Assembly (NCBI GenBank): GCA_015057835.1
Contig: SVDL01000002.1
Coordinates: 26,103-90,102 of the forward strand
DNA length: 64,000 bases
Source: Lachnospiraceae bacterium
Lineage (GTDB): Bacteria > Bacillota > Clostridia > Lachnospirales > Lachnospiraceae
Direction: 5' to 3'
Position 1 is the first letter of the stretch, and every line of letters starts with the position of its first letter. This document shows positions 43,804-63,028 of the stretch, piece after piece. The position numbers were made by a program, and so were the translations under genes. The notes below the pieces were generated by a model. It searched no databases. It was not told where the DNA came from and saw only the letters and a program-made list of their open reading frames with translations.

Positions 43804-44883
43804 CTATACGCTTCTGGGTCTCAGTGCGCAGGTATCCCGTTTAACCAGATAGGCCGGATAAATATAGGTATAAGGCCATTTGACGGAGCCGTCCATGAGA
43901 CCGAGCATCGCCCGTGCGCACCGTCGTCCCATTTCCGTTTTGGGATGGGAGATGGAAGTCAGATGGGGATCCGTGCTTTGCGCAATATATGTATCATCAA
44001 ATCCTATGACGGATACGTCCTGCGGAACGCGGATCCCGCTTATTGAAAGAAGACGCATGCATTTCAGCGCGATCTTATCGTTATAGCAGAAAATGCCTGT
44101 GATATTTTCGCTGCGAATCGTGCGGACAAGTGTTTTCTCGAGGTTGTCATGATATTCAATCATGACAACTTTTTCTATGCCGTATTCCGTTGCGGCAGTC
44201 CTGAATCCTATGCATCTTCTTGAAGAATCGACATACTGAGGGTCGTAAATGATGCCGCACCGTTTGTGGCGGAATGCGGCCAGATGTTCCGCGACTCGTG
44301 CTCCCCCGCCGTAATCATCGAAGGATACCATGGAGAAATCCGCTTTACTGAGGTTGCTGTCGATCATGAGACAGGGGATATTGTACTCGCGGAACCGGTT
44401 TGCTATTCTGCAGAGCTTTTCGGTTGTCTTTTCATCCGCGTGATGTGCAAGCTGGAAGATTACTCCGGAATCCCTGGAATCCAGGCAGGATTCCAGACGA
44501 CGGAAAAGGATTCCCGCGTCTGTGCTGGTGTCCAGAATATTGAGGTGGCATTTGTCTTCCGTCATAACTTCCCGAAGACCATCTACGTAATAGGAAACAA
44601 AATAGGTATTATTCATATCAAGCAGTGCCGTGACGACCCTGGAAGAAGCGCTGCTCACAGTGCGGACGAAGGTTCCTTTCCCCTGGTGCTTGATCAGAAG
44701 TCCTTCCGATAACAGAACATTCAGGGCATTCCGTATGGTTATCCTCCCGACGCCGTATTGTTTCATCATTTCTGATTCACTGGGAAGCTTTGCGTCCGGG
44801 GGAATGCTGCCGGAATGAATTGCTTCACGAAGTTCGGCGGCGATCTGAAGATAGAGAGGAGACTGTGTCGTTCGGTCAAGCAT
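43804..44883 (-). CDS. GntR-HTH plus LacI-type sensor domain regulator (AraR-like architecture)
   Basis: LPSESEM...GRITIRNAL...QGKGTFV N-terminus; VPQDVSVIGFDD C-terminus; start reset to MLDRTTQ. Confidence 0.9.
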   Translation of the reverse strand: MLDRTTQSPLYLQIAAELREAIHSGSIPPDAKLPSESEMMKQYGVGRITIRNALNVLLSEGLLIKHQGKGTFVRTVSSASSRVVTALLDMNNTYFVSYYVDGLREVMTEDKCHLNILDTSTDAGILFRRLESCLDSRDSGVIFQLAHHADEKTTEKLCRIANRFREYNIPCLMIDSNLSKADFSMVSFDDYGGGARVAEHLAAFRHKRCGIIYDPQYVDSSRRCIGFRTAATEYGIEKVVMIEYHDNLEKTLVRTIRSENITGIFCYNDKIALKCMRLLSISGIRVPQDVSVIGFDDTYIAQSTDPHLTSISHPKTEMGRRCARAMLGLMDGSVKWPYTYIYPAYLVKRDTCALRPRSV

Positions 44884-45071
44884 ATAGGTGTCCCTTTCTG
44901 TTGAATAGAATAAGTACAGAACGTTCTTGCATATAAGTATAGAATAAGTTAATGACGAAAGACAAGCGTCCAGTTGGTTTTTTATCCGAAATGCCTTGTT
45001 TTTACAGAGATATATTGTAAAAAATGACGAATTATGCAGCGTAATACAAATAATAACTGTTAAATATGCTA

Positions 45072-45087
45072 TTATATAGACGTATAA
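45072..45087. promoter_or_regulatory. Candidate operator for the divergent GntR/AraR-like regulator
   Basis: TTATA-TAGACG-TATAA near-palindrome. Confidence 0.35.
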
Positions 45088-45224
45088 CAGTTGCTGTCGA
45101 AAACGAAACATGATTTAGAATATGTCGTGCTGACAGCTTCTCAGTCCGAAGCAGAAGGTGCATGAGGAGATAACTGTAGAATAAGTATCCTGCGGGGACT
45201 GGATCATCACAAAAGGAGGAAAAA

Positions 45225-46565
45225 ATGAAAAGGAAAGTGAAACAAGTAATTGCACTGTTGCTGTGTATCTTCCTGATCGGAGGGCTTACTGCCTGTGGTG
45301 GTTCATCAGGAGGGGAAGCATCCTCCACTGCGGAAGGAGAAGGCGCTGCTTCCGGAGAGAAAGTAGAACTTACGGTCTGGATCAACGGTAAAGACAGTTA
45401 TATCAGTCCGGATGAACAGAAAAAGCCGGAAGAGGAGTGGTACATTAATCAGGCGATTGCCCGCTTTGAAGAGAAATACCCGAATATCACCGTAAAAATG
45501 ATCGTATCGGCAGATGGTGAAACGGCACATCAGCAGTTTAAAGCAGATGAACTTGCCGGCACCGCGCCCGATATGGCGAATCTGTGGACCGGTCAGTATA
45601 CCTATCAGCTGGAAGATGCATGTTTAGACATCAAGGATATGATCCCGGCGGAAGATAAAGAAAACATTTTAGGATGGGATGCCGTGACGACACCAAGCGG
45701 AAAAATCCTCGGGTATCCGACCAGCGATAACCAGGTCTGCTTCTTTATGTACAATAAGAAGATCATCGAGGAGTGCGGCCTTGATTTTGAAAACAATCCA
45801 CCGCGTACGACCGAAGAATTTGATGCGGCGTGCGAAGCGATCAAGGCAAAAGGATATACACCGATCGTGACCGATGAAGCATTCCCGTGGTTCGGCTGCT
45901 TCATTATGAACTACTGGTGGGCACAGCTTTCCGGAGTCGACAGGATCGTCGCAAACTGCGATGGAACACAGAAGTTTGCGGACGATGAAGGCCTGTTCAA
46001 GGCAGCGGGTTATTACCGCTCTCTTATGGAAAAAGGCTACATCAATGAAGACGCTCTTACATCAGCGGACTCTTTCAACCGCTTTACCTCCGGACAGGCG
46101 GCAATGACGCCGCAGGTCTCCTCCGCGGTCGGCGATGCGGAAGCTGCCCTCGGCGCGGAAAATCTCGGCGCAATTCTTCCTCCGGATATGGACGGCGCTT
46201 CGATCACCGGCGGAACGATCGGCGGTCCGGGACAGGATATCGTTGTCTCTGCCAGTACAAAGCATCCGCAGGAATGCATTCAGTTCCTGAGCTATCTGAA
46301 CTCCAAAGAAGAGATCATGGAATTTGAAAAAGTACAGACAAAAGTTTCCACAAGAAAAGATGTTACGGCAGAAGATCTCAATATTCAGGAAGGCACTGCG
46401 ACGGCGAAGCTTTTCGAATATTCCAATAACATGGTCTTCTGGGTCGACAATACGCTCACATCTGATGTCTGTGCTGAGTTTACACAGCTTCTTTCCATGG
46501 TACTTGGCGGCCAGATGTCCATCGAAGATTTCGCTGCAGACCTTGATAACGCAGCAGCAGGCTGA
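45225..46565 (+). CDS. Carbohydrate ABC transporter substrate-binding lipoprotein
   Basis: Lipobox LTAC; YNKKI and FTSGQAAM; CUT1-type size. Confidence 0.9.
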   Translation: MKRKVKQVIALLLCIFLIGGLTACGGSSGGEASSTAEGEGAASGEKVELTVWINGKDSYISPDEQKKPEEEWYINQAIARFEEKYPNITVKMIVSADGETAHQQFKADELAGTAPDMANLWTGQYTYQLEDACLDIKDMIPAEDKENILGWDAVTTPSGKILGYPTSDNQVCFFMYNKKIIEECGLDFENNPPRTTEEFDAACEAIKAKGYTPIVTDEAFPWFGCFIMNYWWAQLSGVDRIVANCDGTQKFADDEGLFKAAGYYRSLMEKGYINEDALTSADSFNRFTSGQAAMTPQVSSAVGDAEAALGAENLGAILPPDMDGASITGGTIGGPGQDIVVSASTKHPQECIQFLSYLNSKEEIMEFEKVQTKVSTRKDVTAEDLNIQEGTATAKLFEYSNNMVFWVDNTLTSDVCAEFTQLLSMVLGGQMSIEDFAADLDNAAAG

Positions 46566-46596
46566 TGTTGAAAATGCCTGAAGTCTGAAATAATAA

Positions 46597-46625
46597 CGAA
46601 CGGCCCGGCTGTGCCGGGCCGTTCG
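46597..46625 (+). other. Strong hairpin without a U-tract after the SBP gene (probable mRNA-stabilising stem)
   Basis: CGAACGGCCCGGC-TGT-GCCGGGCCGTTCG, 13-bp perfect stem. Confidence 0.65.
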
Positions 46626-46643
46626 GAAAGGAAAAGGGCATTG

Positions 46644-47570
46644 ATGGCACAAAAAGAAACAGATAAAAAAACAGGCAGCGGAACGGGAAAACTGGCGCGG
46701 AATCAGCGCATTTGCGCAGTTCTGTCAGTTATACCGGCTGCGCTGATCATTGCGTCGGTCAAGGCTTGGCCCATAATCCAGACGGTCTGGCACAGCTTTA
46801 CCAACTGGGACGGGCTCTATAAAAACGATTTTGTAGGGTTGGCGAATTACAGGACCTTTATTTCTACCGGGCTGTTTTCCAAGCTTTTGGGCAACAGCCT
46901 TTTTCTGCTGATCAGTGTGCCGGCACAGGTATTGATCGGTATTCTTGTTGCGGTGCTGCTCTACGAGAAAACAGCGGGATGGAAAGCATTTCGTTCCATA
47001 TACTATATCCCGCAGATCATCTCGCTCGTGATACTCGGTTATCTTTTTAAATCCATGTTTTCACAGAACGGGCCGATCAATCAGATCCTGATGCTGCTGG
47101 GCTTTATAAAAACACCCGTCGAATGGCTCGCAAAAGGCACGACGGCTCTTCCGGTACTGACGATCTGCATAACCTGGTATTCGGTCGGATGGCAGGTAAT
47201 CATGATTCTGGGAGGGATGTCCTCTATTGACCCGCAGGTATTTGAGGCGGCTAAAATAGACGGGGCAAACTTTTTTACAAGGATTTTTAAGATCATTATC
47301 CCTATGATCTCGAGTACGCTTACGTATTGCGTGGTCATGTCCGTTGTGTGGACATTTACCAGTCTCTTCTCGCTGATCTATTCCATGACGAACGGCGGAC
47401 CGGGATATGAGACGATGACGCTTGACTACATGGTGTATGCCAGATCGTTCCTCAAAGGCGATCAGTTCGGTTTTGCGTGTGCCGTTGCGGTCGTACTGCT
47501 GATCATCGTTATGATCATCACATTTATTAACCTGCGGATTTCAAAAGCAGCGGAAAAGGAATGGGGGTGA
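46644..47570 (+). CDS. Carbohydrate ABC permease
   Basis: FVGLANY; EAAKIDGA (EAA loop). Confidence 0.92.
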   Translation: MAQKETDKKTGSGTGKLARNQRICAVLSVIPAALIIASVKAWPIIQTVWHSFTNWDGLYKNDFVGLANYRTFISTGLFSKLLGNSLFLLISVPAQVLIGILVAVLLYEKTAGWKAFRSIYYIPQIISLVILGYLFKSMFSQNGPINQILMLLGFIKTPVEWLAKGTTALPVLTICITWYSVGWQVIMILGGMSSIDPQVFEAAKIDGANFFTRIFKIIIPMISSTLTYCVVMSVVWTFTSLFSLIYSMTNGGPGYETMTLDYMVYARSFLKGDQFGFACAVAVVLLIIVMIITFINLRISKAAEKEWG

Positions 47571-47574
47571 GCAT

Positions 47575-48414
47575 GTGAAAAAAAAGACGCCGATGGCCAG
47601 ACTCGGAAGAGCAGTCATTTTTATCGTCCTTGTAGCCCTTGCTCTGACATTCCTGTATCCGTTGTTCTTTATGTTTTCCAACTCTTTGAAAACACTTGGC
47701 GGTTACTACAGAGATCCTTTCGGACTTCCGAAAGAAGCGCTGGAGTGGAATAATTTCTTTATCATGATCCGCCAGTTTAAGATCTTCAAGCTGTTTGGAA
47801 ATACGCTGATCGTATCACTTGCTACGGTTATTGGTCTGATTGTTTTCGGGGTTCCTGCAAGTTACGCTTTTTCGAAAGTGCGCTTTCCGGGCGGAGACGC
47901 TCTCTATTTCGCGATCCTCGCAACACTTTTTATTCCGGTGCAGGTAACGATTATTCCGATGTATGTCACCTTTGCCAAGCTGAAGCTGGTGGACAATTTC
48001 TTCAGTGTCATCCTGGCAAACTGGGCGGCATTTCTTCCGGAGACGATCATGCTTATGACAGCTATGTTTAAGAGCATTCCCAACGCGCTTCTGGAGGCGG
48101 CAGAGATCGACGGGTGCAATTATCTGCAGAGGCTTCTGCATATCATTGTTCCGATGGGGAGGCCTGCGATCTCGCTGACGGTGATCATTTTCTTTATCAA
48201 TTCCTGGAATGATCTTTTTACGCCGATGATACTCCTGAAGAGTACTGAAAAGAGAACGGTTATTGTAGCGCTTTCCTCTCTGGTAGGCCGCTACAGCGGA
48301 GATCCGCCGTTTCAGTATGCAGGGCTCCTTCTGAGCGCGATTCCGGCGCTGATTATTTATATTATTTTCCAGAAACGGATCATTGACGGTATGAGTATGG
48401 GGGCCGTTAAGTAA
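47575..48414 (+). CDS. Carbohydrate ABC permease
   Basis: EAAEIDGC, WND and QKRIIDGMSMGAVK motifs. Confidence 0.92.
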   Translation: MKKKTPMARLGRAVIFIVLVALALTFLYPLFFMFSNSLKTLGGYYRDPFGLPKEALEWNNFFIMIRQFKIFKLFGNTLIVSLATVIGLIVFGVPASYAFSKVRFPGGDALYFAILATLFIPVQVTIIPMYVTFAKLKLVDNFFSVILANWAAFLPETIMLMTAMFKSIPNALLEAAEIDGCNYLQRLLHIIVPMGRPAISLTVIIFFINSWNDLFTPMILLKSTEKRTVIVALSSLVGRYSGDPPFQYAGLLLSAIPALIIYIIFQKRIIDGMSMGAVK

Positions 48415-48446
48415 CGGATGAACCGAATATATTGAGGAGGCATTAT

Positions 48447-49832
48447 ATGAGAAAACCCAGACTGGGCCTGCTGGGCCTTATGGCAGGTACTTATGAACCT
48501 ATTTTTCCGGGGATCATCGAACGCCAGGAAAACTATGCCAGGGAACTTGTAAAAACATTCAGTGCGGTAGCGGATATTGATTTCCCCGGCGCTGCAACAA
48601 ATCGGGAAATGATAGGACAGAGGGTCCGGTATTTCAATGAAAAGCAGCTCGACGGCATCCTGATCGTTCTGCTCACCTATTCGCAGGGAACCTGGCTTCT
48701 GCAGCCTCTTCTTGAGAACAGGCTGCCGCTTGCGCTCGCGGTCATTCAGCCGGATTCTTATGTGGACGAAGAGTTCTATGAGCTTGATCTGACGGTCAAT
48801 CAGGGAATTCACGGTGCACAGGACAACTCGAATATGATCGTCAGGAACGGAATCAAATGTCAGTTCTTCGCTGCGGAGCGAAATGATCCCGCCCTCGTGA
48901 AATTTGTTGCGGATTTCGGCCATGCAGCCATGACTTACAAGGAAATGCGTGGAATGAAAGTCGGCGTTCTTTCGAGAATGCAGGGCATGGGAGATATTCT
49001 CCTCGACGATATGGCCTATTCCGCAAGGATCGGGGCAGAGTTCTGCAATGATACAGCCGGCTCGATCTATCGGCGGATGGAAGCGCTTACAAAAGCGGAG
49101 ATCGATGATCAGATCGCCAAAGACCATGAGACATTTGTCATCGATCCTAAACTGACTTATGAGAGTCATGCGGAAGCGGTCAGAATGTATCTCGCATTTA
49201 AAAAATGGCTTATTGATAATGATTTCAAGGCATTTACGGCACACTTTGACATTTTCGGCGACGACGGACGATTCCATCAGCTGCCGCTGTACGCCGCTTC
49301 CCAGTTAATGGCGGACGGCTACGGTTATGCCGCAGAAGGCGATCAGTCCTGCGCGGCAATGGTCATGGCGGCGCATCTTCTCGGCGAAGGCGGCGGAAAC
49401 TTTACGGAAATGTATATGATGGACTTCAAAGTCAACGGGATCTGCTTCTGTCACGCCGGTGAAGGCAACTGGGCGACTTCGGAAAAGAAACCGAGACTGA
49501 TCGACCGGTATCTCGGAGAGGGCGGTCTGGAGAACCCGCCGACGATCATGTTCGTTCCGAAGGCGGGGCGTGCTACGCTGACATCGCTTGCACCGATGAA
49601 CGGAGATTATATGAGGCTGCTTGTTGCGGGCGGTGAAATGCTCCCGAAAGATGACCTGAAGAACTGCGAGATGCCTTATTTCTTCTGGCGTCCGGACAGC
49701 GGCGTTACGACCTGTGTAAAGAACTGGCTGGCAAACGGCGGTACACATCACGAAGTCATAAATCTCGGAGACGTTTCCGACAGATGGAAAATGCTCTGTG
49801 ACCTTTGGGATATCGAATTCGTACAGGTATAA
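48447..49832 (+). CDS. Sugar isomerase of the L-arabinose/L-fucose isomerase fold
   Basis: Metal-ligand motifs GYAAEGD, FTEMY, CHAGEG and GGTHH. Confidence 0.85.
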   Translation: MRKPRLGLLGLMAGTYEPIFPGIIERQENYARELVKTFSAVADIDFPGAATNREMIGQRVRYFNEKQLDGILIVLLTYSQGTWLLQPLLENRLPLALAVIQPDSYVDEEFYELDLTVNQGIHGAQDNSNMIVRNGIKCQFFAAERNDPALVKFVADFGHAAMTYKEMRGMKVGVLSRMQGMGDILLDDMAYSARIGAEFCNDTAGSIYRRMEALTKAEIDDQIAKDHETFVIDPKLTYESHAEAVRMYLAFKKWLIDNDFKAFTAHFDIFGDDGRFHQLPLYAASQLMADGYGYAAEGDQSCAAMVMAAHLLGEGGGNFTEMYMMDFKVNGICFCHAGEGNWATSEKKPRLIDRYLGEGGLENPPTIMFVPKAGRATLTSLAPMNGDYMRLLVAGGEMLPKDDLKNCEMPYFFWRPDSGVTTCVKNWLANGGTHHEVINLGDVSDRWKMLCDLWDIEFVQV

Positions 49833-49833
49833 C

Positions 49834-51348
49834 ATGAAATACATATTGACGTTTGATATAGGAACGACAGCAGTCAAGGCGTGCCTCTTTGATGAGAGGC
49901 TGCGCCTTGCGGCTTGTTCTAATGAAGAATATGCGCTGCTGACGGCTGAAGACGGGACGATAGAACTGGAGCCCTGCCGGTATTGGGAAGCGGTGAAGGC
50001 CGGCGCAAAGGCAGCGATCGAAAAAGCGGAAATCGATCCGGCCGATGTTTCTGCCGTTTCCGTGACTACGCAGGGAGAGACTCTGATCCCTGTAGATGAG
50101 AACGGAGATCCCCTGCGGAATGCAATCGTATGGCTGGACCAGAGGGCGGAAAAAGAGGCGGCGGAACTGGCGGAAAAGTTCCCTGCGGATGTTTTCTACA
50201 GAAAAACAGGACTTCCGGAGCTCAATGGGTATACACCGATCGCAAAGGTGATGTGGATCCGGAACAATGAGCCGGAAATTTACAGAAAAACGGACTGTTT
50301 CCTCCTTCTGGAAGACTATATTTTCTTTAAACTCACAGGAAAGCGGGTCACGGAAAAATCTCTCGCGACGTCGACCGGGTGGTATACGTTTGACGGTGAC
50401 GGGTATTACAGGGAGATCCTGGAAGCGGCAGGTCTTGATATCGGGAAATTTCCGCCGATGCTGGAGAGCGGGGAGATCATTCCCGGCGGTCTGCTGCCGG
50501 AGGTAAGAAAAGAACTGGGGCTTTCCGACAGCGTTGCGGCCGTGACCGGCGCGATGGATCAGACCGCGGGAGCGCTCGCAATGGGAAATGTGAAGCCCGG
50601 AAGAGTGACGGAAACAACAGGTACCGCTTTAGTGATCGGAGCGACGCTCCCGTCCTTTGATCCTGCCGCAGAACCGAAAGTCACGGTATACAGGCATTAT
50701 AAAAAAGACCTGTATCTCATGATGCCGATCTGCATGACCGCGGGGATGTTCCTGAAATGGTTCCGGGATGAATTCTGCGCAGAAGAGAAAGAAACGGCAG
50801 AGAAAAGAGGCATTTCCTCCTATCAGATCATCGATGAGGAAGTAGAGAGTATACCTGCCGGATCCGGCGGACTGGTTGCACTGCCTTATCTTACGGGTTC
50901 TCTTCAGCCGGTGCAGGATTCAAAAGCGAGGGGTATATTCTTCGGATTTGGCCTGGAACATAAAAGGCCGCATTTTCTCAGAGCGGTTTTTGAGAGCGTT
51001 GCTTTCATGCTGCGCGAAAATATCGAACTGATTGAAAAAGCCGGCAGACTTCACGTAAGCAGTATCATCTCTCTCGGAGGAGGGGCGTCGTCCCCTGTCT
51101 GGTGCAGGATCAAGGCAGATACGCTCGGACAGACGATCTGTGTTCCGGAAGTGACCGAGAGCACATCCTGCGGAGCGGCGGTACTCGCAGCGGTGGCGAT
51201 CGGCTGGTATGCGGATGCGGAAGCCGCGGCAGAAGCCGCTTCCGGAAAAATGTCATTTTACGAGCCGGATCCGTCAGGAGCGAAAGAGTATGACAAGGCA
51301 TACGCGAAGTATAAAGCGCTGTATGAACACACAAGGACTCTTTTTTAG
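49834..51348 (+). CDS. FGGY-family carbohydrate kinase
   Basis: FDIGTTAVK, AIVWLDQRA, GAMDQ, ETTGT, RAVFESVAF and GGGASS motifs. Confidence 0.92.
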   Translation: MKYILTFDIGTTAVKACLFDERLRLAACSNEEYALLTAEDGTIELEPCRYWEAVKAGAKAAIEKAEIDPADVSAVSVTTQGETLIPVDENGDPLRNAIVWLDQRAEKEAAELAEKFPADVFYRKTGLPELNGYTPIAKVMWIRNNEPEIYRKTDCFLLLEDYIFFKLTGKRVTEKSLATSTGWYTFDGDGYYREILEAAGLDIGKFPPMLESGEIIPGGLLPEVRKELGLSDSVAAVTGAMDQTAGALAMGNVKPGRVTETTGTALVIGATLPSFDPAAEPKVTVYRHYKKDLYLMMPICMTAGMFLKWFRDEFCAEEKETAEKRGISSYQIIDEEVESIPAGSGGLVALPYLTGSLQPVQDSKARGIFFGFGLEHKRPHFLRAVFESVAFMLRENIELIEKAGRLHVSSIISLGGGASSPVWCRIKADTLGQTICVPEVTESTSCGAAVLAAVAIGWYADAEAAAEAASGKMSFYEPDPSGAKEYDKAYAKYKALYEHTRTLF

Positions 51349-51410
51349 GCGGATTGTTTTGCAGAACAGTTCGCTTAATAAGAGGGCCTTGCTGAAAAGG
51401 AGATTGCAGG

Positions 51411-52427
51411 ATGGAATACCGCAGACTGAAAGAATATATCGGTCACAGGGCTCAGCTGTTTGAAGTACGGGAGTCGAGACTGTCCGGCGGAAGGGCGGAC
51501 GGGACAAGGATCGTGGATATTTTCAACGGGGGGAACCTTTCAGTGACGATCGTCCCGGATGCCTGTATGGATATACTGAGTGTTCGATACAAGGGCAGGT
51601 GTCTGAATTATATCTCCCCTTCCGGACAGGCGCATCCGGCTTATTACAATCCGTTCGGAGAGGGCTGGAGCGAGGTCTTTCCTGCAGGCTTTTTATTTAC
51701 CTGCGGGCTTTCCCATATAGGAATAAAGGATGACGACTGGGAGGGGATGAAAGAACACGGCGCCATCGGCAACCGTCCGGCGGAGCACCTCAATATTACG
51801 GAATATGAGACGGAGGACGGCCGGCCTGGTGTACTGCTGGAGGGAACCATGAGAGAGTCGATGCTGGCAGGCAGAAACCTCTCTTTGCGAAGGCGCATCC
51901 GCATGGAATATGCGAAAGACGTGATCGAGATCGAGGATACGGTGAAAAATGAAGGCTTCCGTGCAGTGCCGCATATGATCCTCTATCATTGCAACATGGG
52001 TTGGCCGCTTCTTTCTCCGGAAAGCTGTGTGAAGATTCCCAACAAAGGGATCAGGCCGAGAACAGAATTTGCAGAGAAAATGAGGGACGCATTTTCCACG
52101 ATTCCGGAACCGTTTGATTCGTTGGAAGAAATGTGCTATTACTACGACACCATCGAAGATGAGGACGGAATGGTCACTGTGGAAATGAGAAATCCGCAGG
52201 AAGGCGCGGGGATAAAACTGCGCTACGGAAAGAAAACACTGCCGCAGTTCGTACAATGGAAAAACTTTGTCAAAGGAGAGTATATTATGGGACTCGAACC
52301 AGGCAATGCGACCATTGACGGAAAGGCAGACGCGGAAAACAGGGGCGCGCTCCCAATGATCGGGCCGCAGGAAGAAATATCCTACCATTTGTGTTTCTCA
52401 TTTAATGACGGACAGGAAGAGGGCTGA
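51411..52427 (+). CDS. Aldose-1-epimerase-like (DUF4432) protein
   Basis: GFLFTCGLSHIG, LYHCNMG and MGLEPG motifs. Confidence 0.8.
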   Translation: MEYRRLKEYIGHRAQLFEVRESRLSGGRADGTRIVDIFNGGNLSVTIVPDACMDILSVRYKGRCLNYISPSGQAHPAYYNPFGEGWSEVFPAGFLFTCGLSHIGIKDDDWEGMKEHGAIGNRPAEHLNITEYETEDGRPGVLLEGTMRESMLAGRNLSLRRRIRMEYAKDVIEIEDTVKNEGFRAVPHMILYHCNMGWPLLSPESCVKIPNKGIRPRTEFAEKMRDAFSTIPEPFDSLEEMCYYYDTIEDEDGMVTVEMRNPQEGAGIKLRYGKKTLPQFVQWKNFVKGEYIMGLEPGNATIDGKADAENRGALPMIGPQEEISYHLCFSFNDGQEEG

Positions 52428-53476
52428 TGATGGCTGGACGGGTATTTGGCACAGATAAGGAAGGCAGAGCGATCCGGGCGTACACGATCGGAACAGATAA
52501 GCTTCGGGCTGTGATCCTGGATTACGGCGCAACGGTCCAAAGCCTGTTTGTTCGCGGTGCGGACGGAAAAGAGAGGGATATTGTTTTAGGTTATGACAAT
52601 GCGGAAGGGTATATTGCGGGAGAGCAGTATTTCGGAGCGACGATCGGAAGAGTCGCCAACCGCATCGCAGGCGCGGAATTTGAATTAAATGGCAGGAAAT
52701 ATGAGCTTGCAAAGAATGAGAGAGACTATAACAGCCACGGAGGGATAGTTGGATTTGATAAAAGGATCTGGGATGCTTTAGACAGCGGATCCGATTATGT
52801 CCGTATGCATTACAGAAGTCCCGACGGAGAGGAAGGTTTTCCGGGCACGCTGGATGTGGATGTCACATTTTCGATCGAGGGGGAGTCCCTCGTGATCACA
52901 TATGAGGCAGTCACGGATAAAGATACGATCCTGAATCTGACAAATCACAGCTATTTCAATCTTGACGGCGGCGGGAGCGTAGAAGAGCAGCTTCTCATGA
53001 TCCGCGCGGATACATTTACGGAAATTGATGAGGCGATCCTTCCGACGGGAAGGATCCTGCCGGTTAAAGATACAGCGCTGGATTTCCGGGAGGAAAAGCC
53101 GATCGGAAAGGACGTTGACCGCAATGCACCATATATGGCTGCCGGCGCCGGGTATGATCATAATTTTGTTATTGCCGATGAGTGCCGGTCCGGGCAGATT
53201 CCCTTTGCGGCTGCATTTTCTTCAAAAAGCGGCATCCGCATGACCTGTTTTACGGATCAGCCCGGCGTGCAGCTGTATACGCCGGATTATATCAGTGAAA
53301 CTGCCAAAGGGGGGAAAGCGCCCGGCCGCCGGCCGGCGTTCTGCCTTGAAACACAACATTTTGCGGATGCTGTACACCATCCGCATTTTCCGTCGATCGT
53401 TCTCGAGGCAGGAGAGCGGTTCTGCAGCTGCACGCGATTCTGCTTTGATGTCCCAATAGAAGGGGAAGCAGGGTAA
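52427..53476 (+). CDS. galM: Aldose 1-epimerase (galactose mutarotase family)
   Basis: GRVANRI, HGG, NLTNHSYFNL, YDHNF and FCLETQ motifs. Confidence 0.9.
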   Translation: MMAGRVFGTDKEGRAIRAYTIGTDKLRAVILDYGATVQSLFVRGADGKERDIVLGYDNAEGYIAGEQYFGATIGRVANRIAGAEFELNGRKYELAKNERDYNSHGGIVGFDKRIWDALDSGSDYVRMHYRSPDGEEGFPGTLDVDVTFSIEGESLVITYEAVTDKDTILNLTNHSYFNLDGGGSVEEQLLMIRADTFTEIDEAILPTGRILPVKDTALDFREEKPIGKDVDRNAPYMAAGAGYDHNFVIADECRSGQIPFAAAFSSKSGIRMTCFTDQPGVQLYTPDYISETAKGGKAPGRRPAFCLETQHFADAVHHPHFPSIVLEAGERFCSCTRFCFDVPIEGEAG

Positions 53477-53508
53477 GCAAAAAGCTGTATATGAAACCAA
53501 TGAATAAG

Positions 53509-53540
53509 AAAATGACAGGGGAAGCCCCCTGTCATTTTTT
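53509..53540. terminator. Bidirectional intrinsic terminator
   Basis: AAAATGACAGGGG-AAGC-CCCCTGTCATTTTTT. Confidence 0.85.
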
Positions 53541-53571
53541 ATATCGGTTGAACGGATTACACCGCGCCTTT

Positions 53572-53793
53572 TTAATTGCGGTTGTTTTTGATCACATAAC
53601 CCATTTTCCGCCGGTCAAATACGAGTTCTTTGCCCGTATCGCTCCGCTCCGATAAATGCGCGCGAATATCATCGATATCCCGCTGGATCGTTCTCGATCC
53701 GACCTGAAAGCGCTGCGCCTCCTCGTTTTTTATCAGTGTTCTGCCTTCCAGCAGCCGGTCATACATACTTAAGATTCGTTCTGCCTTTGCCAT
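53572..53793 (-). CDS. 73-aa stand-alone winged HTH (resembles the N-terminal HTH of WYL regulators)
   Basis: RILSMYDRL...EAQRFQVGSRTIQRDIDDIR...GY; RBS GGGGGAAAG. Confidence 0.75.
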   Translation of the reverse strand: MAKAERILSMYDRLLEGRTLIKNEEAQRFQVGSRTIQRDIDDIRAHLSERSDTGKELVFDRRKMGYVIKNNRN

Positions 53794-54138
53794 TTCTCTT
53801 TCCCCCGTATACTGGTGTAATGTCAATAGATGTCTATCTGTGGGTAAAGACACGCCGCGGACTGATAAGGTTCAAAAAAGTAAAAAGAAATTGCATCAGA
53901 TTTCAAAGTAAAAAATTCCCAAAACAATACATTGTGAAACCCAAAACTTCCGGAGTTTTCCAACATCTTTTACTCTATCAGCAAGGGATGACACTATTTG
54001 TCTATCACTTTTCATAAACCTCATTTTCCGCGGATTTCTTCCCAAAAAAGAGAAAATCAGGCCGGCGTCCTGTGGTATACTTTTTTGTGAGGAGAGACGG
54101 TATTTGCCGGGAAAGACAGCATTGCCGCGCGTGAAAAA

Positions 54139-55083
54139 ATGGATACCAGAGTACAGAAAATATGCAGCGAAATCGGTACCGTCATCATCGGCAAGGATGA
54201 GATCATCCGCCGGGTCCTGATGGCATTTTTAAGTGAGGGGCACATTCTCCTGGAAGACGTGCCCGGGACGGGGAAAACGACACTGGCCATGACGGCAGCG
54301 AAAGTGCTGGGACTCGACAGCCGGAGAGTGCAGTTCAATTCCGATACGATGCCCTCGGACATCATCGGTTTCTCCGTCTATGACCATGAGAGAAAAGCGC
54401 TGGTGTATCAGGAAGGCGCGATCATGACGAATCTGCTTCTCGCGGACGAGATCAACCGGACGTCCAGCAAGACGCAGTCCGCGCTGCTCGAGGCAATGCA
54501 GGAGCGCCGGGTCACCGTTGACGGAAATACCTACGCCCTCCCGACCCCGTTCATCGTCATCGCGACCCAGAATCCGGCGGGCTCCGCGGGCACGCAAATG
54601 CTTCCGAACGCCCAGCTGGACCGCTTCCTCGTCCGGCTCGCCATGGGCTACCCGAGCCGGGAGAGCCAGATCGATATTATGAAGAACCGCCAGACCGCAG
54701 ATCCGCTGGACGCCTGTTCGGCGGTTGTCAGCCATGAAGAATTCATGGAAATGGTGAAGGCTGTCCGGCAGATTCATGTGAGCGACCGCATTTACGAATA
54801 CATTACGGATCTTGTGGAAAAGACGCGCCTGAACCCCTATGTGGAGCTGGGCGTGAGTCCCCGCGGCGGCATCGCGGTGTGCCGGATGGCGAAAGCGGCG
54901 GCATTTGTCAACGGAAGAGATTATGTGACGCCGGCGGACGTCCGGGAAATTTTCACGGATGTCTGCGCGCACCGTCTGATCCTCTCCCCGCAGGCAAGAC
55001 TCCACGAGCAGCGCGCGGAAGCGATCCTCGGGGGCGTGCTCCGGCAGGTCAAGAGCCCGGACGTGGCGGAACTTTCTTTGTAG
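54139..55083 (+). CDS. MoxR-family AAA+ ATPase
   Basis: GHILLEDVPGTGKT, LLADEINR, QSALLEAMQE, ATQNP and QLDRF motifs. Confidence 0.95.
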   Translation: MDTRVQKICSEIGTVIIGKDEIIRRVLMAFLSEGHILLEDVPGTGKTTLAMTAAKVLGLDSRRVQFNSDTMPSDIIGFSVYDHERKALVYQEGAIMTNLLLADEINRTSSKTQSALLEAMQERRVTVDGNTYALPTPFIVIATQNPAGSAGTQMLPNAQLDRFLVRLAMGYPSRESQIDIMKNRQTADPLDACSAVVSHEEFMEMVKAVRQIHVSDRIYEYITDLVEKTRLNPYVELGVSPRGGIAVCRMAKAAAFVNGRDYVTPADVREIFTDVCAHRLILSPQARLHEQRAEAILGGVLRQVKSPDVAELSL

Positions 55084-55090
55084 GAGCGGC

Positions 55091-56281
55091 GTGATGGCGA
55101 TGAAGAGAACCGTTTCCGCTGGCGCCTTTGGCGCATGGGGACTGCTGTTGATCCTGACAGGTGCCGCAGCCCTGTTCAGTACGAGCCTGATCGCGAAGGC
55201 AGCCTTTTTCTTCTGTCTGTTTCTTCCGGGATGCTCGGCATTGACCGCGCGGGCGGTGAGGAAGCACCTTAGAGCTGATTTTTCACTTCCGGTCAGTGCA
55301 GTGAAGTCACAGACGGCGGGCGGCGAAAGCGTTCAAAGCGCGTTTGGTGCAGTCAATCTCCACAACGGAGGATTTTTATCCTGCGGGCGGGTCGACGTGA
55401 CCTTTTCGATCAAAAATGAGCTGACCGGAGAAGCATCGGAGCATACGGTAACATTGTCTGCGCCGTCGAGGGGAGGTTCGGCGGCATCTTTCTCATTTTC
55501 ACCGAATTACTGCGGAATGCTGACATTTTCCATAAAAAATGCGGTGCTTTATGACTGGTTTGGCCTGTTACGGATCCCGGCTGCACTCACGGCACAGGGG
55601 AGCGTGACGGTGCTGCCGGCGACATTTGACGCGTCGGTAATGGTGGATCTCCCCTATTCGGAACAGGGAGATGAGGAAAATATCAACCCGCTTCGCGGAA
55701 CCGAGGATCCGTCCGTGATCTATGCCCTGCGCGAATATCAGGCGGGGGATCCCGTGCGCAGAATGCACTGGAAACTGTCGGCAAAGAGAGATCTTCCGAT
55801 CGTAAAGGAGATCAGCCGGCCGGTCAGCCGCTCCCTCGTCCTTTTTTGGAATAAGACAGCAGGACTTCCGGCGGGGGTGACGGATGCGCTGGCGGAGGTA
55901 TTTGCTTCCGTGGCGATGTCGCTGACGAAGCAGGGGATCCCTTTCACGGCCGGCTGGAGAGACAGCGGCGGAGAGCAGTTCTCCGATATCAGCGGGGAAG
56001 AAGAGCTGTTTGCCGTAATCGCCCGGTCGGTGCGGCGTGGGGCGGGAGAGCCCGATGCTGCAGCACTTTCCGAAGCCGGATTCTCTGAAATCATAAATTT
56101 ATGCCAAAATGCGAAAACCGTCTGGTTCGCCGGAGAATATCCATTTGCGGAGGAACCGTTTCTTTCCGGGGACAGCACCGTTTTTCTGTGCGGGAAAGAA
56201 CCTCCTGCGTCGGGCGTACGCTTTACTTTGACGTTTGCGCCGGAGGAGGCGGAGCAGGTATTCCGTGCGGTCCGGATTTAA
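55091..56281 (+). CDS. DUF58 domain membrane protein
   Basis: Two N-terminal TM helices; LREYQAGDPVRRMHWKLSAK signature. Confidence 0.9.
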   Translation: MMAMKRTVSAGAFGAWGLLLILTGAAALFSTSLIAKAAFFFCLFLPGCSALTARAVRKHLRADFSLPVSAVKSQTAGGESVQSAFGAVNLHNGGFLSCGRVDVTFSIKNELTGEASEHTVTLSAPSRGGSAASFSFSPNYCGMLTFSIKNAVLYDWFGLLRIPAALTAQGSVTVLPATFDASVMVDLPYSEQGDEENINPLRGTEDPSVIYALREYQAGDPVRRMHWKLSAKRDLPIVKEISRPVSRSLVLFWNKTAGLPAGVTDALAEVFASVAMSLTKQGIPFTAGWRDSGGEQFSDISGEEELFAVIARSVRRGAGEPDAAALSEAGFSEIINLCQNAKTVWFAGEYPFAEEPFLSGDSTVFLCGKEPPASGVRFTLTFAPEEAEQVFRAVRI

Positions 56282-56287
56282 AGAAGT

Positions 56288-58723
56288 GTGAGGAAACCCC
56301 GATCCATGAGCAGCGTGAAACTCCAATTTCAGAATAGAGCCGCGGTCTCTTTCCAGGAGATCGTTCTTGCCATGCTCGCCGCCGCGTTGTGCACGGCGGG
56401 TGCGGCAGCGGCGCTGGTTCCGGTCTTCCCGCATATTCCGGGAAGCTGGGGCATCTACGCTCTGATCGGCGCAGTACTCACGGCGGCATTCTGTTTCCTG
56501 CTCTATATGCCTGTCGGCAGAAGATTGACGCTCATCGTCAGCGGAGCCGTTCTGCTGATTTTTGCCGTTCGTTTTCGCGCTTTCCGCAATGGAATGCTTG
56601 TGCTCGGCAATGATTTTCAGGAATTCCTGACCGGCCGCACAGGGCGGATCCACCTCTATTTCAGAACACAGGGCAATGCAGGCTCGATATTGGTGCCGGC
56701 GCTCTATCTGATCCTGATTTCCATCATTAGCGCGACCTCGCAGCGCCGCGGAAAAAGATTCCCGATGATCCTCCTCGCGCTCTCCGCGGTTGCCATGATC
56801 TTCGGATTTCCCGTTTCGCCATGGAGTGTTCTGCTCCTCGCCGCAGCGGCTGTTATAGGTGTGCAGAATCCAAATAGCTTCACCATCCGATCCCCGCGGC
56901 GCGGATTCCTGTCCGCCCTCATCCCGGCGGCGTTCGCCCTCGCGGCAGTCGGCATCCTGTTTTTTATCGGTTATCTTGTCGCGGGAACAGAGGAATTCCG
57001 GACCGCCGGCGCGGTGGACGGGATCCATCGGAAGATCCACGAGTTCCGCTATGAACGGGGCGGCAGGATCGCCATGCCGGAAGGGGATCTTCGTAGCTAT
57101 GAGCCTCCGGAAAATGAAACCGACCCCCTGCTCACGATCAAAATGAGCCATCCGGAGAAGCTCTATCTCCGCGGCTTTACCGCAGAAGTATTTGAAAATG
57201 ACATCTGGCGCAGCTGTGACAGCGACGCATATATCGAAAATGCTCCCCTTTTCTACACGCTCCATGAAAATGCATTCTACGGCCAGAAAATGATCGCCTC
57301 CGCCGCGGAAGCCGCCGGATGGGAAGGGGCTTCATCGGACAGCGCCTCACCGGAAAAACCTTCACCGGAAAAAGATTCATCGGAAAAACCTTCATCGGAT
57401 CATGCTTTATCAGAAAAAGCAACTCCGGGCGAAGACGCAGACCAATCAGCTGTCATCACAATAAAAAATGAAAACATCTGCCGGAAATACCGGTTCCTGC
57501 CGTATGCCATGAAAGAGCAGGATCTGTTGGATCCGCTGGCGATCGGAGATGCAGGTGCGCTGACGGAACATTCCGCCGCGGATCCGGACACTACCGAGAT
57601 CCAGTATCTTCCCGGCAGCATCCCGGAGTGGTATGAAATCGGGCTCGCACTGGTGTCCGATGCCGAAGACACTGCCGGCGCCTCCGACGTCACCACCCCG
57701 TCAGACGGTCCCGCCGGAGCCGGGGCCGATTCCGCCGCAGCCGGAGGCGAATCCGCGGGCAGCATCTATGCTCCGGCATCCGCATTTCAGTATCTCCGCC
57801 TTGAACAGGCCTATTATGACAGTGTTCTTAAACAGGACCGCCAGCTGCCGCCCGACGCGGCTTCCGAATGCGCCGCGCTGTTCGGTGAGGAACCGAAGGA
57901 GAGAAAGCTCTCCGACATCCTGGCCCTCGTGCACGAAACGCTGGAAAATTCAAAATATGAAGATACCTACCACTACGCCTCCGCGGCGGCGCTCATGCTC
58001 CGCTATCTCGGCGTGCCCGCGCGGTACGTGGAGGGTTTCCTGCTGACTGCGGAGGAAGCCGCGGAGATCGGGCCGGAGGAAGAAGCCGCGCTGACCGCCG
58101 CAAATACCCACGCCTGGGCAGAATTTTATCTCCGCGGCATTGGCTGGATCCCCTTCGAGGCGACGCCCGGATACAGGGATAACGAAGAAATTTCCCGCAT
58201 TGCGATCCTGGTGGAGAAGTCCAGGAACGCGTCCGGAGAAGCCCCGATATTTGCGCAGACGGAGATCGTGTATACCTCCGGCATTTACGATACGGCGGCT
58301 CCTTATGGGACAGCGGGGAAAATGCATTTCCGCTGGAAATGGTGGTTCTGGCTTATTCCTGCGGGAGCGGCAGCGGAAGTGATGCTGGTATGGATCATTT
58401 TCGAGATCAATGAGCGCCGCAGGCAGTATAAAAAGGCGATGGCAACGATCCGCGCCGCCAGAGAGGAGGGCCGGTTCCCGGACGCGGTCGCCCTCGAATA
58501 CGCCTACGCCCGAAGGCTCATGAAGGAGGCGGACATTCAGGATCCGCCGGGGCTCGCGAGGATGCAGCGTCTCAACGAGGAGGCGGTCTTCAGCGATCAC
58601 GCACTTACGGAGGAAAATGCCCGCGAGGCGGAAGCATTTACCCAAAATATCATCACGGAATGTAAGCGGAAATGGTCTCTTAGGGAGCGGCTGTACCACC
58701 GCTGGGTCAACGGGATCATCTGA
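56288..58723 (+). CDS. Multi-TM transglutaminase-like protein lacking the catalytic Cys
   Basis: YLRGF, HYASAAALMLRYLGVPARYVEGF, HAWAE and WIPFEATPG motifs; Thr at the expected Cys position; C-terminal TM helix. Confidence 0.85.
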   Translation: MRKPRSMSSVKLQFQNRAAVSFQEIVLAMLAAALCTAGAAAALVPVFPHIPGSWGIYALIGAVLTAAFCFLLYMPVGRRLTLIVSGAVLLIFAVRFRAFRNGMLVLGNDFQEFLTGRTGRIHLYFRTQGNAGSILVPALYLILISIISATSQRRGKRFPMILLALSAVAMIFGFPVSPWSVLLLAAAAVIGVQNPNSFTIRSPRRGFLSALIPAAFALAAVGILFFIGYLVAGTEEFRTAGAVDGIHRKIHEFRYERGGRIAMPEGDLRSYEPPENETDPLLTIKMSHPEKLYLRGFTAEVFENDIWRSCDSDAYIENAPLFYTLHENAFYGQKMIASAAEAAGWEGASSDSASPEKPSPEKDSSEKPSSDHALSEKATPGEDADQSAVITIKNENICRKYRFLPYAMKEQDLLDPLAIGDAGALTEHSAADPDTTEIQYLPGSIPEWYEIGLALVSDAEDTAGASDVTTPSDGPAGAGADSAAAGGESAGSIYAPASAFQYLRLEQAYYDSVLKQDRQLPPDAASECAALFGEEPKERKLSDILALVHETLENSKYEDTYHYASAAALMLRYLGVPARYVEGFLLTAEEAAEIGPEEEAALTAANTHAWAEFYLRGIGWIPFEATPGYRDNEEISRIAILVEKSRNASGEAPIFAQTEIVYTSGIYDTAAPYGTAGKMHFRWKWWFWLIPAGAAAEVMLVWIIFEINERRRQYKKAMATIRAAREEGRFPDAVALEYAYARRLMKEADIQDPPGLARMQRLNEEAVFSDHALTEENAREAEAFTQNIITECKRKWSLRERLYHRWVNGII
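57332..57421 (+). repeat. Six in-frame copies of a 15-bp unit (SxEKx-like) inside the transglutaminase-like gene
   Basis: TCATCGGACAGCGCC TCACCGGAAAAACCT TCACCGGAAAAAGAT TCATCGGAAAAACCT TCATCGGATCATGCT TTATCAGAAAAAGCA. Confidence 0.8.
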
Positions 58724-61642: not shown

Positions 61643-63028
61643 ATGGCTATAGTTGGTGCGTTTATGGTGCCGCATCCGCCGATGATCGTACCGGAAGTCG
61701 GCCGGGGCGGTGAAAAGCAGATCGAAAAGACAGTCCGTGCGTATGAGCGGGTGGCCTCGGAAGTCGCCGCGCTGCGCCCTGAGACAATCATCATCACAAG
61801 TCCGCATACGGTGATGTATACGGATTATTTCCATATTTCTCCGGGAAGATCGGCGACAGGCTCTTTTTCCCAGTTCCGGGCGAGGGATGTCCGCTTCACG
61901 GAATCTTATGACACGGAGCTGATCCGCGCCGTGAAAGAAATTGCGCAGGAAAATGCATTTCCGGCCGGAACACAGGGAGAGCGCGACGCGGCGCTGGACC
62001 ACGGCGTGATGGTGCCGCTCTATTTCATTGAGAAGCTTTACAAAGATTTCAAACTGGTGAGGATCGGTCTCTCCGGATATCCGCTCACCATGCATTATCA
62101 GCTCGGGCAGATTCTGCAGCAGGCAGTACAGGAGACCGGCCGGCGGGTGGTTTTGATCGCGAGCGGAGATCTGTCCCATAAACTGCAGTCCTACGGACCG
62201 TATGGATTTGCCCCGGAGGGTCCGCAGTATGATAAGCGGATCATGGACGTTATGGGGAGAGGTGCATTTGGCGAGCTGTTTGAATTTGACGAGACATTCT
62301 GTGACAGGGCGGCGGAATGCGGCCACCGGTCTTTCTGTATTATGGCCGGCGCATTTGACGGACAGGCGGTCCGTGCGGAAATGCTGTCCCATGAAGATGT
62401 TACCGGCGTCGGATACGGGATCTGCACGTTTTACCCGCAGGGGGAGGACGAGACAAGATATTTCCTGAAAGAGTACCTGAAAAAAGCAAAAGCCAGTCTG
62501 ACTAAGAAGCGCCTGGAAGAAGATGACTATGTCCGTTTTGCGCGGAAGTGCGTCGAGTCATATGTGCTCGGAGACAGGATCACCCGGGTCCCGGAAGGCC
62601 TTCCGGAAGAGATGCTGATCCGCGCCGCGGGCGTATTTGTCTCGATCCATGAACACGGCCGGCTCCGCGGATGCATCGGCACGATCCTCCCGGTGCGCCG
62701 CTGCATCGCGGAAGAGATCATGTCGAACGCCGTCAGCGCCTGCGCGAAAGACCCGAGATTTGATCCGGTCCGCCCGGACGAACTGCCGTTCCTTGACATC
62801 AACGTCGACGTCCTCACCTCGCCGGAACCGATCGAAAGCAAAGCGGAACTGGATGTGAAAAAGTATGGCGTCATCGTATCCTGCGGCGCCCGCCGCGGCC
62901 TTCTCCTGCCGGATCTAGACGGCGTGGACACCGTGGACGACCAGGTCGATATCGCGATGCGGAAGGGCGGCATTTCTCCGACGGAGAACTATTCTTTGGA
63001 TCGGTTTGAGGTGATCCGGCACCGGTGA
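61643..63028 (+). CDS. amrA: AmmeMemoRadiSam system protein A: LigB/Memo-like domain fused to AMMECR1
   Basis: VPHPPMIVPEVG, SPH, LDHG and ASGDLSH; C-terminal GVFVSI...LRGCIGT, DPRF and GLLLPDL motifs. Confidence 0.88.
   Translation: MAIVGAFMVPHPPMIVPEVGRGGEKQIEKTVRAYERVASEVAALRPETIIITSPHTVMYTDYFHISPGRSATGSFSQFRARDVRFTESYDTELIRAVKEIAQENAFPAGTQGERDAALDHGVMVPLYFIEKLYKDFKLVRIGLSGYPLTMHYQLGQILQQAVQETGRRVVLIASGDLSHKLQSYGPYGFAPEGPQYDKRIMDVMGRGAFGELFEFDETFCDRAAECGHRSFCIMAGAFDGQAVRAEMLSHEDVTGVGYGICTFYPQGEDETRYFLKEYLKKAKASLTKKRLEEDDYVRFARKCVESYVLGDRITRVPEGLPEEMLIRAAGVFVSIHEHGRLRGCIGTILPVRRCIAEEIMSNAVSACAKDPRFDPVRPDELPFLDINVDVLTSPEPIESKAELDVKKYGVIVSCGARRGLLLPDLDGVDTVDDQVDIAMRKGGISPTENYSLDRFEVIRHR

Follow-up and report, generated by a model that had tools for sequence, protein, structure and literature searches.

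A compact transporter-isomerase-kinase operon of a Lachnospiraceae bacterium, probably for a free neutral aldose of new specificity

Which sugar is taken up, isomerized and phosphorylated by the products of a compact gene cluster of a Lachnospiraceae bacterium, and is it one for which a route is already known? The cluster lies in a stretch of 64,000 nucleotides, the window of this study (G000:C69:26103-90102), within a genome assembly (G000) of 2.66 Mb, with 182 contigs and a completeness of 91%. In gut and rumen Clostridia many sugar loci have no assigned substrate; the present one is a compact and conserved example that is widespread among metagenomes. On balance we consider it probable that the locus is a locally repressed operon for one free neutral aldose that is neither L-arabinose, D-xylose nor D-galactose; as the substrate is likely to be none of these three, the specificity would be new. 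Gene content was established from the listing of open reading frames (ORFs) and from Pfam and NCBIfam scans of the window. An earlier, sequence-only reading had described eight genes, namely an AraR-like regulator, the binding protein and two permeases of an ATP-binding cassette (ABC) importer, an isomerase, an FGGY kinase and two genes of mutarotase fold, as a self-contained unit closed by a terminator. All eight were recovered where it had placed them, by ORF, Pfam and NCBIfam evidence, the terminator hairpin with its 13-bp stem and T-run is present (Table 1) and the flanking genes are unrelated. As that reading had also stated, the locus holds no gene for an ATPase, a glycosidase, a 4-epimerase, an aldolase or a transketolase.

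The isomerase shares with L-arabinose isomerase (AraA; EC 5.3.1.4; PDB 4R1O, 2AJT, 4LQL, 7CX7) its fold, domains and metal and catalytic residues, but stands apart from it in sequence. It scores 134.2 bits against the AraA equivalog NF002795 (137 in the genome search), for which the cut-off is 622, matches AraA entries of the PDB with E values of 1e-21 to 1e-29 at ~25% identity and is ~35 residues shorter. E297, E321, H336 and H434/435 align with E306, E333, H350 and H450 of AraA, whose ligand roles are described in PMC11172353; the AraA-type metal ligands claimed by the sequence-only reading (Glu/Glu/His/His) are thus in place, the peptide motifs it quoted occur in the sequence, and the NQxxHG motif is found near the N terminus. 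Judged from the alignment alone, the positions corresponding to M185, F279 and Y333 of AraA, which PMC11172353 calls substrate-positioning, are identical, while I371 is replaced by Glu and D332 by Met. A maximum-likelihood tree was built from the window protein and its relatives, canonical AraA of the relatives, G000's own AraA-like paralogue (iso2, 28% identical to the window isomerase), a group of ~480 amino acids (aa), the PF02952 short forms and FucI. The window isomerase and its relatives form one clade and canonical AraA another, each supported at 100/100, so that the enzyme does not cluster with bona fide AraA; the family clade is also separate from iso2, the ~480-aa group, the PF02952 short forms and FucI. 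The new isomerase specificity proposed from the sequence, a proposal that was to fall if the enzyme lay within AraA and araD stood under the same regulator, is the best reading of these results: the clade is separate, the score is 134 against 622 bits, the operator is local, and AraD was not found in G000. Judged by its sequence, the isomerase is therefore likely to have a new specificity. It is also unlike AraA in being unlinked to araB and araD and in occurring independently of canonical AraA.

Relatives of the isomerase are numerous, with at least 120 protein clusters at 59-96% identity in a search of 5.8 billion proteins, mostly unnamed or labelled "L-arabinose isomerase" or "L-fucose/L-arabinose isomerase family protein". 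The one relative in a plasmid collection lies on a Subdoligranulum replicon and carries no annotation. The family occurs in the cultured species Christensenella intestinihominis, Paenibacillus macquariensis and Subdoligranulum variabile, which makes it directly testable. We inspected 23 loci with related isomerases, taking ~10 kb as the neighbourhood. The operon as arranged in the window (A-type) recurs in L030/L031, L033 and L043/L044, three independent metagenome lineages (L031 duplicates L030), with identity to the window copy of 43-47% for the repressor, 61-64% for the binding protein, 60-69% for the permeases, 72-77% for the isomerase, 55-62% for the kinase and 57-59% for DUF4432. Since the same operon recurs with components 43-77% identical, the eight-gene arrangement is not due to chance. 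A-type relatives often also have a DUF624 gene and sometimes GalM, which some orthologous operons lack (e.g. L043); no glycosidase, TIM-like or YjbQ gene lies within 10 kb in the A-type loci, the window included. The A-type isomerases are nested (100/99) inside a broader B-type radiation of 50-69% identity, found in Oscillospiraceae, Christensenella, Paenibacillus, Caproiciproducens, Eisenbergiella and spirochaetes. The B-type loci usually encode a DeoR regulator, an AglA-like GH4 glycosidase, one or two UPF0047/YjbQ proteins and an archaeal-type TIM paralogue that exceeds the NF003302 cut-off. Of the 23 loci, 17 have YjbQ and 15 a TIM-like gene within 10 kb of the family isomerase. L014 (74% identity) is intermediate, with an AraR-like regulator as well as GH4, TIM-like and YjbQ genes.

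The start codon of the kinase gene (ATG) lies 1 nt past the isomerase stop codon. XylB is the best family match of the kinase, at 352.3 bits against model TIGR01312, below the cut-off of 380.25; it is 28-31% identical to the XylB proteins encoded next to XylA in the related genomes G086, G088 and G303, and scores 199 bits against the GlpK model, where the cut-off is 590. By these comparisons the kinase is XylB-like but not XylB. The DUF4432 protein has a single PDB match, 3TY1, annotated as a 'hypothetical aldose 1-epimerase', and its gene adjoins the isomerase-kinase pair in many relatives; the GalM-type protein reaches 285 bits against TIGR02636 (cut-off 398). From this gene content we infer a simple order of steps, in which GalM and the DUF4432 protein would equilibrate the anomers of the incoming sugar, a Mn/Co-type isomerase of the AraA-superfamily clade would turn the aldose into a 2-ketose, and the XylB-like FGGY kinase would phosphorylate the ketose.

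Control of the operon appears to be local. The regulator joins an N-terminal GntR winged helix to a LacI/PBP-type sugar-binding domain, which is the architecture of AraR, and its best PDB match is the effector domain of Bacillus subtilis AraR (3TB6), at just 82.7 bits; 4EGY is also among the PDB matches. Its ORF extends to 45111, but an ATG at 44884 is preceded by a ribosome-binding site and gives a protein of 360 aa, similar in length to its orthologues (359-369 aa), and we placed the start there for these two reasons. In the divergent control region TAGAATAAGT occurs at 44906, 44940, 45116 (one mismatch) and 45177, that is, four copies at one mismatch or fewer where shuffled sequences give an expectation of 0.08. 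The 2.66-Mb genome holds five exact copies, three of them in this control region, and no plausible promoter elsewhere in G000 carries one. A wider regulon was considered for the two further exact sites and rejected, as one is intragenic and the other 5' of an unrelated GntR gene. L014 keeps an inverted pair of the element and L030 a single copy. These repeats are candidate operator half-sites, or they may be -10-like elements. The AraR operator consensus ATTTGTACGTACAAAT (PMC1950556) has no match at three mismatches or fewer in the locus and just two poor ones in the genome. An Rfam search of the locus gave no riboswitch or other family at threshold. The sugar would release the AraR-architecture repressor, which is predicted to act on this locus alone.

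The importer is of CUT1 type, with a family-1 binding protein and two MalF/MalG-type permeases. The best NCBIfam matches of the permeases, both under the cut-off, are the archaeal glucose permease GlcT for permease 1 and GlcU (119.8 bits) for permease 2. We tried to read the ligand of the binding protein from solved relatives, and the nearest structure was too distant for this (best PDB match 63 bits, no close relative). A GC-rich hairpin at the junction of the binding-protein and permease 1 genes extends over the GTG annotated as the start of the permease 1 ORF, whose true start is probably ~10 codons downstream; the hairpin may have a role in differential mRNA stability or expression within the operon, or in attenuation. 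The locus has no dedicated MalK-type ATPase gene. Firmicute CUT1 importers are known to share MsmX/MsmK ATPases, and by analogy with these systems the importer is probably energized in trans. MalK/MsmX-type ATPase genes occur elsewhere in G000, with G000:C36:89500-90777 as the best candidate and five weaker ones.

Whether the genome has a conventional route for arabinose or xylose bears directly on the choice of substrate. Canonical AraA, AraD and XylA were not found in G000, at its 91% completeness. Its sole class II aldolase gene, on contig C67, was considered as a hidden AraD and set aside, as it adjoins MtnA and two PNP-family phosphorylases in a context of 5'-methylthioadenosine (MTA)/5-deoxyribose salvage. 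No AraD gene lies within ~10 kb of the family isomerase in any of the 23 loci. Seven genomes that carry the isomerase, not independent of one another, were scored. G302 (Faecousia) and G305 (Caproiciproducens) have adjacent canonical araA and araD genes besides the family isomerase, and these loci hold no match to the window kinase; G301 and G303 (P. macquariensis) are without canonical AraA and AraD; XylA occurs in G088 and G303. AraA together with AraD is present in two of the seven and XylA in two of the seven, compared with order backgrounds of ~23% for AraA-like proteins and 29% for XylA, and no phyletic complementarity of the isomerase family with AraA or XylA is seen among these carriers. 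XylA is present in only 5 of 50 genomes of the bacterial family of G000, so that its absence from G000 says little. In G304 (C. intestinihominis, L018) there are three AraD-like genes and three AraA-superfamily paralogues, and no canonical AraA or XylA. Use of arabinose and xylose is described for the related C. minuta; if this holds, the AraA-superfamily paralogues of G304 are candidates for the missing isomerases.

An L-arabinose operon would combine a paralogous AraA, comparable to the predicted 'AraI' of Caldicellulosiruptor, with an AraK-type L-ribulokinase, and leave 4-epimerization to an unassembled araD or a non-homologous replacement. The AraR-type architecture of the regulator, with B. 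subtilis AraR as its best structural match, the AraA-type fold, ligands and several pocket residues of the isomerase, and the lack of canonical AraA in G000 are consistent with this. So are the GalM-type epimerase, which has a counterpart in the AraR-controlled araK-araE2-araA2-tal-tkt1-epi cluster of Clostridium acetobutylicum (PMC3507653), and the non-orthologous arabinose isomerases already predicted in Clostridia-like thermophiles (PMC8579813). We nevertheless find it doubtful: AraD is missing from G000, G301 and G303, the family isomerase lies outside the AraA clade and coexists with canonical araA-araD in G302 and G305, where the window kinase has no match, the locus has no AraR box and the genome just two poor matches to it, and the regulator reaches just 83 bits against the AraR effector domain. 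L-Arabinose and D-xylose differ at C4 only, and a D-xylose operon, with the AraA-fold enzyme in place of XylA and a xylulokinase delivering xylulose-5-P straight to the pentose phosphate pathway, would require no downstream enzyme. XylA was not found in G000, the kinase has XylB as its best family match (352 against 380 bits), and the AglA-like GH4 alpha-glycosidase of the relatives suggests a sugar of gluco or xylo configuration. This too seems improbable, since XylA is scarce in the bacterial family anyway and accompanies the family isomerase in G088 and G303, as often as expected from the background of the order, the kinase shares just 28-31% identity with XylA-adjoining XylB of the same order, and the linkage of the relatives to UPF0047 and TIM-like genes would be left unexplained.

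A route from D-galactose to D-tagatose through a side activity of the isomerase, followed by a tagatose kinase, would fit the galactose mutarotase of GalM type in the operon and the ability of AraA enzymes to isomerize D-galactose (PMC11172353). It is very improbable, given two Leloir galactokinases above cut-off in G000, the lack of any tagatose-6-P kinase, aldolase or 4-epimerase in the locus or the orthologous loci, and the absence of GalM from some of the orthologous operons (e.g. L043). The sequence-only reading had likened the isomerase to the SftI/SqvD group and considered a variant sulfo-sugar route that uses an FGGY kinase; for sulfoquinovose, this would pair an SftI-like isomerase with a sulfofructose kinase of the FGGY family. 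SftI does belong to the wider FucI/AraA-type superfamily, as PF02952, the isomerase family that typifies sulfo-transaldolase clusters (PMC11968277), and a sulfatase and a TauE gene follow the operon on one orthologous contig (L043). The likeness does not hold, however. PF02952 (Fucose_iso_C) has no match in the isomerase at E<=0.001, and BLAST against four PF02952 short-form isomerases, which stand in for SftI in this comparison at the level of Pfam families, and FucI gave nothing at E<1, compared with 1e-25 to 1e-35 for AraA; SqvD is a DUF4867 cupin (PMC11968277, PMC11659671). The 23 related loci contain no sulfoglycolysis gene, that is, no transaldolase, transketolase, aldolase, sulfolactaldehyde reductase or dehydrogenase, sulfoquinovosidase or conserved exporter, and we regard the sulfoquinovose route as close to refuted. 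The ~480-aa isomerases of the relatives, tried as SftI candidates, have no adjoining transaldolase. The genes downstream in L043/L044 (10331-15444) encode a sulfatase, an anaerobic sulfatase-maturase-like radical SAM/SPASM protein and a TauE-family exporter; they are found in L043/L044 alone and are for this reason probably coincidental neighbours. The interpretation that we prefer, a neutral aldose other than the three common ones, has evidence weighing against it as well. Several AraA pocket residues are kept, so that an arabino- or galacto-configured substrate, L-arabinose included, is possible. The best XylB-like kinase of G000 lies at a contig end, and in a genome of this completeness and fragmentation xylA or araD could be unassembled. 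C. acetobutylicum has two araA genes (PMC3507653), hence co-occurrence with canonical AraA is compatible with the same function; the seven carriers scored are few and not independent; and a literature search found nothing on the isomerase family, DUF4432 or a role in sugar metabolism for UPF0047.

For the new aldose that we favour, the fate of the ketose phosphate is a further question. It may enter the pentose phosphate pathway directly, as the sequence-only reading had supposed, and for the A-type this is possible, since none of its four lineages has a further enzyme in the locus. Alternatively, the company of the TIM paralogue and UPF0047 suggests that, at least for the B-type, entry is not direct, and the ketose phosphate may first need UPF0047 and TIM-like enzymes. 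Elsewhere in G000 there are three TIM-like and four UPF0047 paralogues; one TIM-like/UPF0047 pair, encoded at G000:C36:91456-92262 and 90951-91445, adjoins iso2 and shows 76% and 73% identity to the pair next to the isomerase in L014, so that it could act in trans. In P. macquariensis, too, the two genes are adjacent. A TIM-family enzyme, L-erythrulose-1-P isomerase, provides a model for a carbonyl shift, and we can envisage a route in which the archaeal-type TIM paralogue and UPF0047/YjbQ shift the carbonyl stepwise, e.g. from ketopentose-1-P to xylulose-5-P, in place of AraD-type epimerization, with the genes on C36 or C54 serving in trans. We think such a route rather unlikely; if it did exist, this would be the first physiological function assigned to UPF0047. 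In G000, UPF0047 genes recur beside sugar-phosphate genes, an association on which we found no paper in the open literature. The recurrent linkage of UPF0047/YjbQ and the TIM paralogue to FGGY kinases is a lead to the role of a very widespread uncharacterized family.

These paralogues are part of other sugar loci of the genome. A second sugar island occupies the minus strand of G000:C36:81455-100532 (L034, L003, L006, L009), in the order binding protein, two permeases, DeoR, FGGY kinase, Amidohydro_2, iso2, archaeal-type TIM, UPF0047, MalK/MsmX-type ATPase, UPF0047, SIS, KDPG aldolase, PfkB kinase, DUF624, FGGY kinase, GalM and ROK. The ATPase of the window importer probably comes from this island, and downstream enzymes possibly do so too. 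G000:C110:130-4537 (L047) encodes a xylose-isomerase-like TIM barrel, BtpA, an FGGY kinase, Amidohydro_2 and UPF0047, and G000:C54:24933-27103 (L037:6933-9103) a protein of the class II fructose-bisphosphate (FBP)-aldolase family, UPF0047 and a TIM-like protein. A canonical TpiA is encoded on C116 and a second TIM of bacterial type on C170.

Among characterized or predicted systems, the AraR cluster of C. acetobutylicum (araK, araA1/A2, araD, epi; PMC3507653) shares with the window locus a GntR/LacI-hybrid repressor, an isomerase, a non-AraB FGGY kinase and an aldose 1-epimerase, but the window locus is without araD, transketolase, transaldolase, phosphoketolase and the AraR box, and has an ABC importer where C. 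acetobutylicum has a proton symporter. Divergent superfamily isomerases paired with FGGY kinases are also represented by AraI of Caldicellulosiruptor bescii (Athe_0707), TM0951 of Thermotoga maritima and DarA/DrlK, whose pentose roles are predicted from context only (PMC8579813 and its supplement); our comparison with these is by description. XylA and XylB follow the same logic of isomerase then kinase, and XylB is the nearest model of the kinase, but XylA is a TIM barrel whose fold is unrelated to that of the window isomerase, and the kinase is only ~30% identical to the XylB proteins of relatives. The kinase also differs from TM0952, presumably of GlpK type, in falling far short of the GlpK cut-off. 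SftI likewise interconverts aldose and ketose, belongs to the broad FucI/AraA-type superfamily and occurs in sugar clusters of Firmicutes, but it is of another Pfam family and has sulfo-transaldolase partner enzymes that the window locus lacks. In kind the system is not new: it varies the well-known catabolic operon of transporter, isomerase and kinase. Identification of its sugar would assign a function to DUF4432 and to a clade now labelled "L-fucose/L-arabinose isomerase family protein", and would mend the automatic labels "L-arabinose isomerase" and "xylulokinase" in metabolic reconstructions.

Table 1. Features of the operon, in window coordinates
Feature	Position	Strand	Evidence or remark
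AraR-architecture regulator	43804-44884	-	Pfam GntR, Peripla_BP_1/3/4
Divergent control region	44885-45224		four TAGAATAAGT copies
CUT1 extracellular solute-binding protein	45225-46565	+	SBP_bac_1/SBP_bac_8
GC-rich hairpin, binding-protein gene/permease 1 junction	46597-46625		13 pairs, 11 G-C
ABC permease 1 (MalF/UgpA/GlcT-like)	46611-47570	+	BPD_transp_1
ABC permease 2 (MalG/UgpE/GlcU-like)	47575-48414	+	BPD_transp_1
AraA-superfamily aldose-ketose isomerase, 461 aa	48447-49832	+	AraA_central (PF24856), Arabinose_Iso_C (PF11762)
FGGY sugar kinase, XylB-like	49834-51348	+	FGGY_N/C
DUF4432 protein, mutarotase-like fold	51411-52427	+	PF14486, 280 bits
GalM-type aldose 1-epimerase	52427-53476	+	PF01263 267.8 bits; NF008277 257 bits vs cut-off 240
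Intrinsic terminator AAAATGACAGGGG-AAGC-CCCCTGTCATTTTTT	53509-53541	+	13-bp stem then T-run, 3' of galM

The operon (44001-54000) has a G+C content of 47-51%, compared with 53-58% in its flanks, and of 301 genomes of the order just 2 were found to carry the isomerase family; taken jointly, the two observations point to a probable horizontal acquisition of the operon. It is flanked by genes for an M13 peptidase and an ADP-ribosylglycohydrolase and by a MoxR/DUF58/transglutaminase set. The latter lies directly downstream of the operon (54139-58723) and encodes a MoxR-type AAA ATPase, a DUF58 protein and a TgpA-like transglutaminase membrane protein. Further along, 58787-61513 encodes a 908-aa protein with sigma-70 regions 2 and 4 at its N terminus and BspA-type leucine-rich repeats at its C terminus, adjoined at 61643-63028 by a LigB-AMMECR1 fusion of AmmeMemoRadiSam type.

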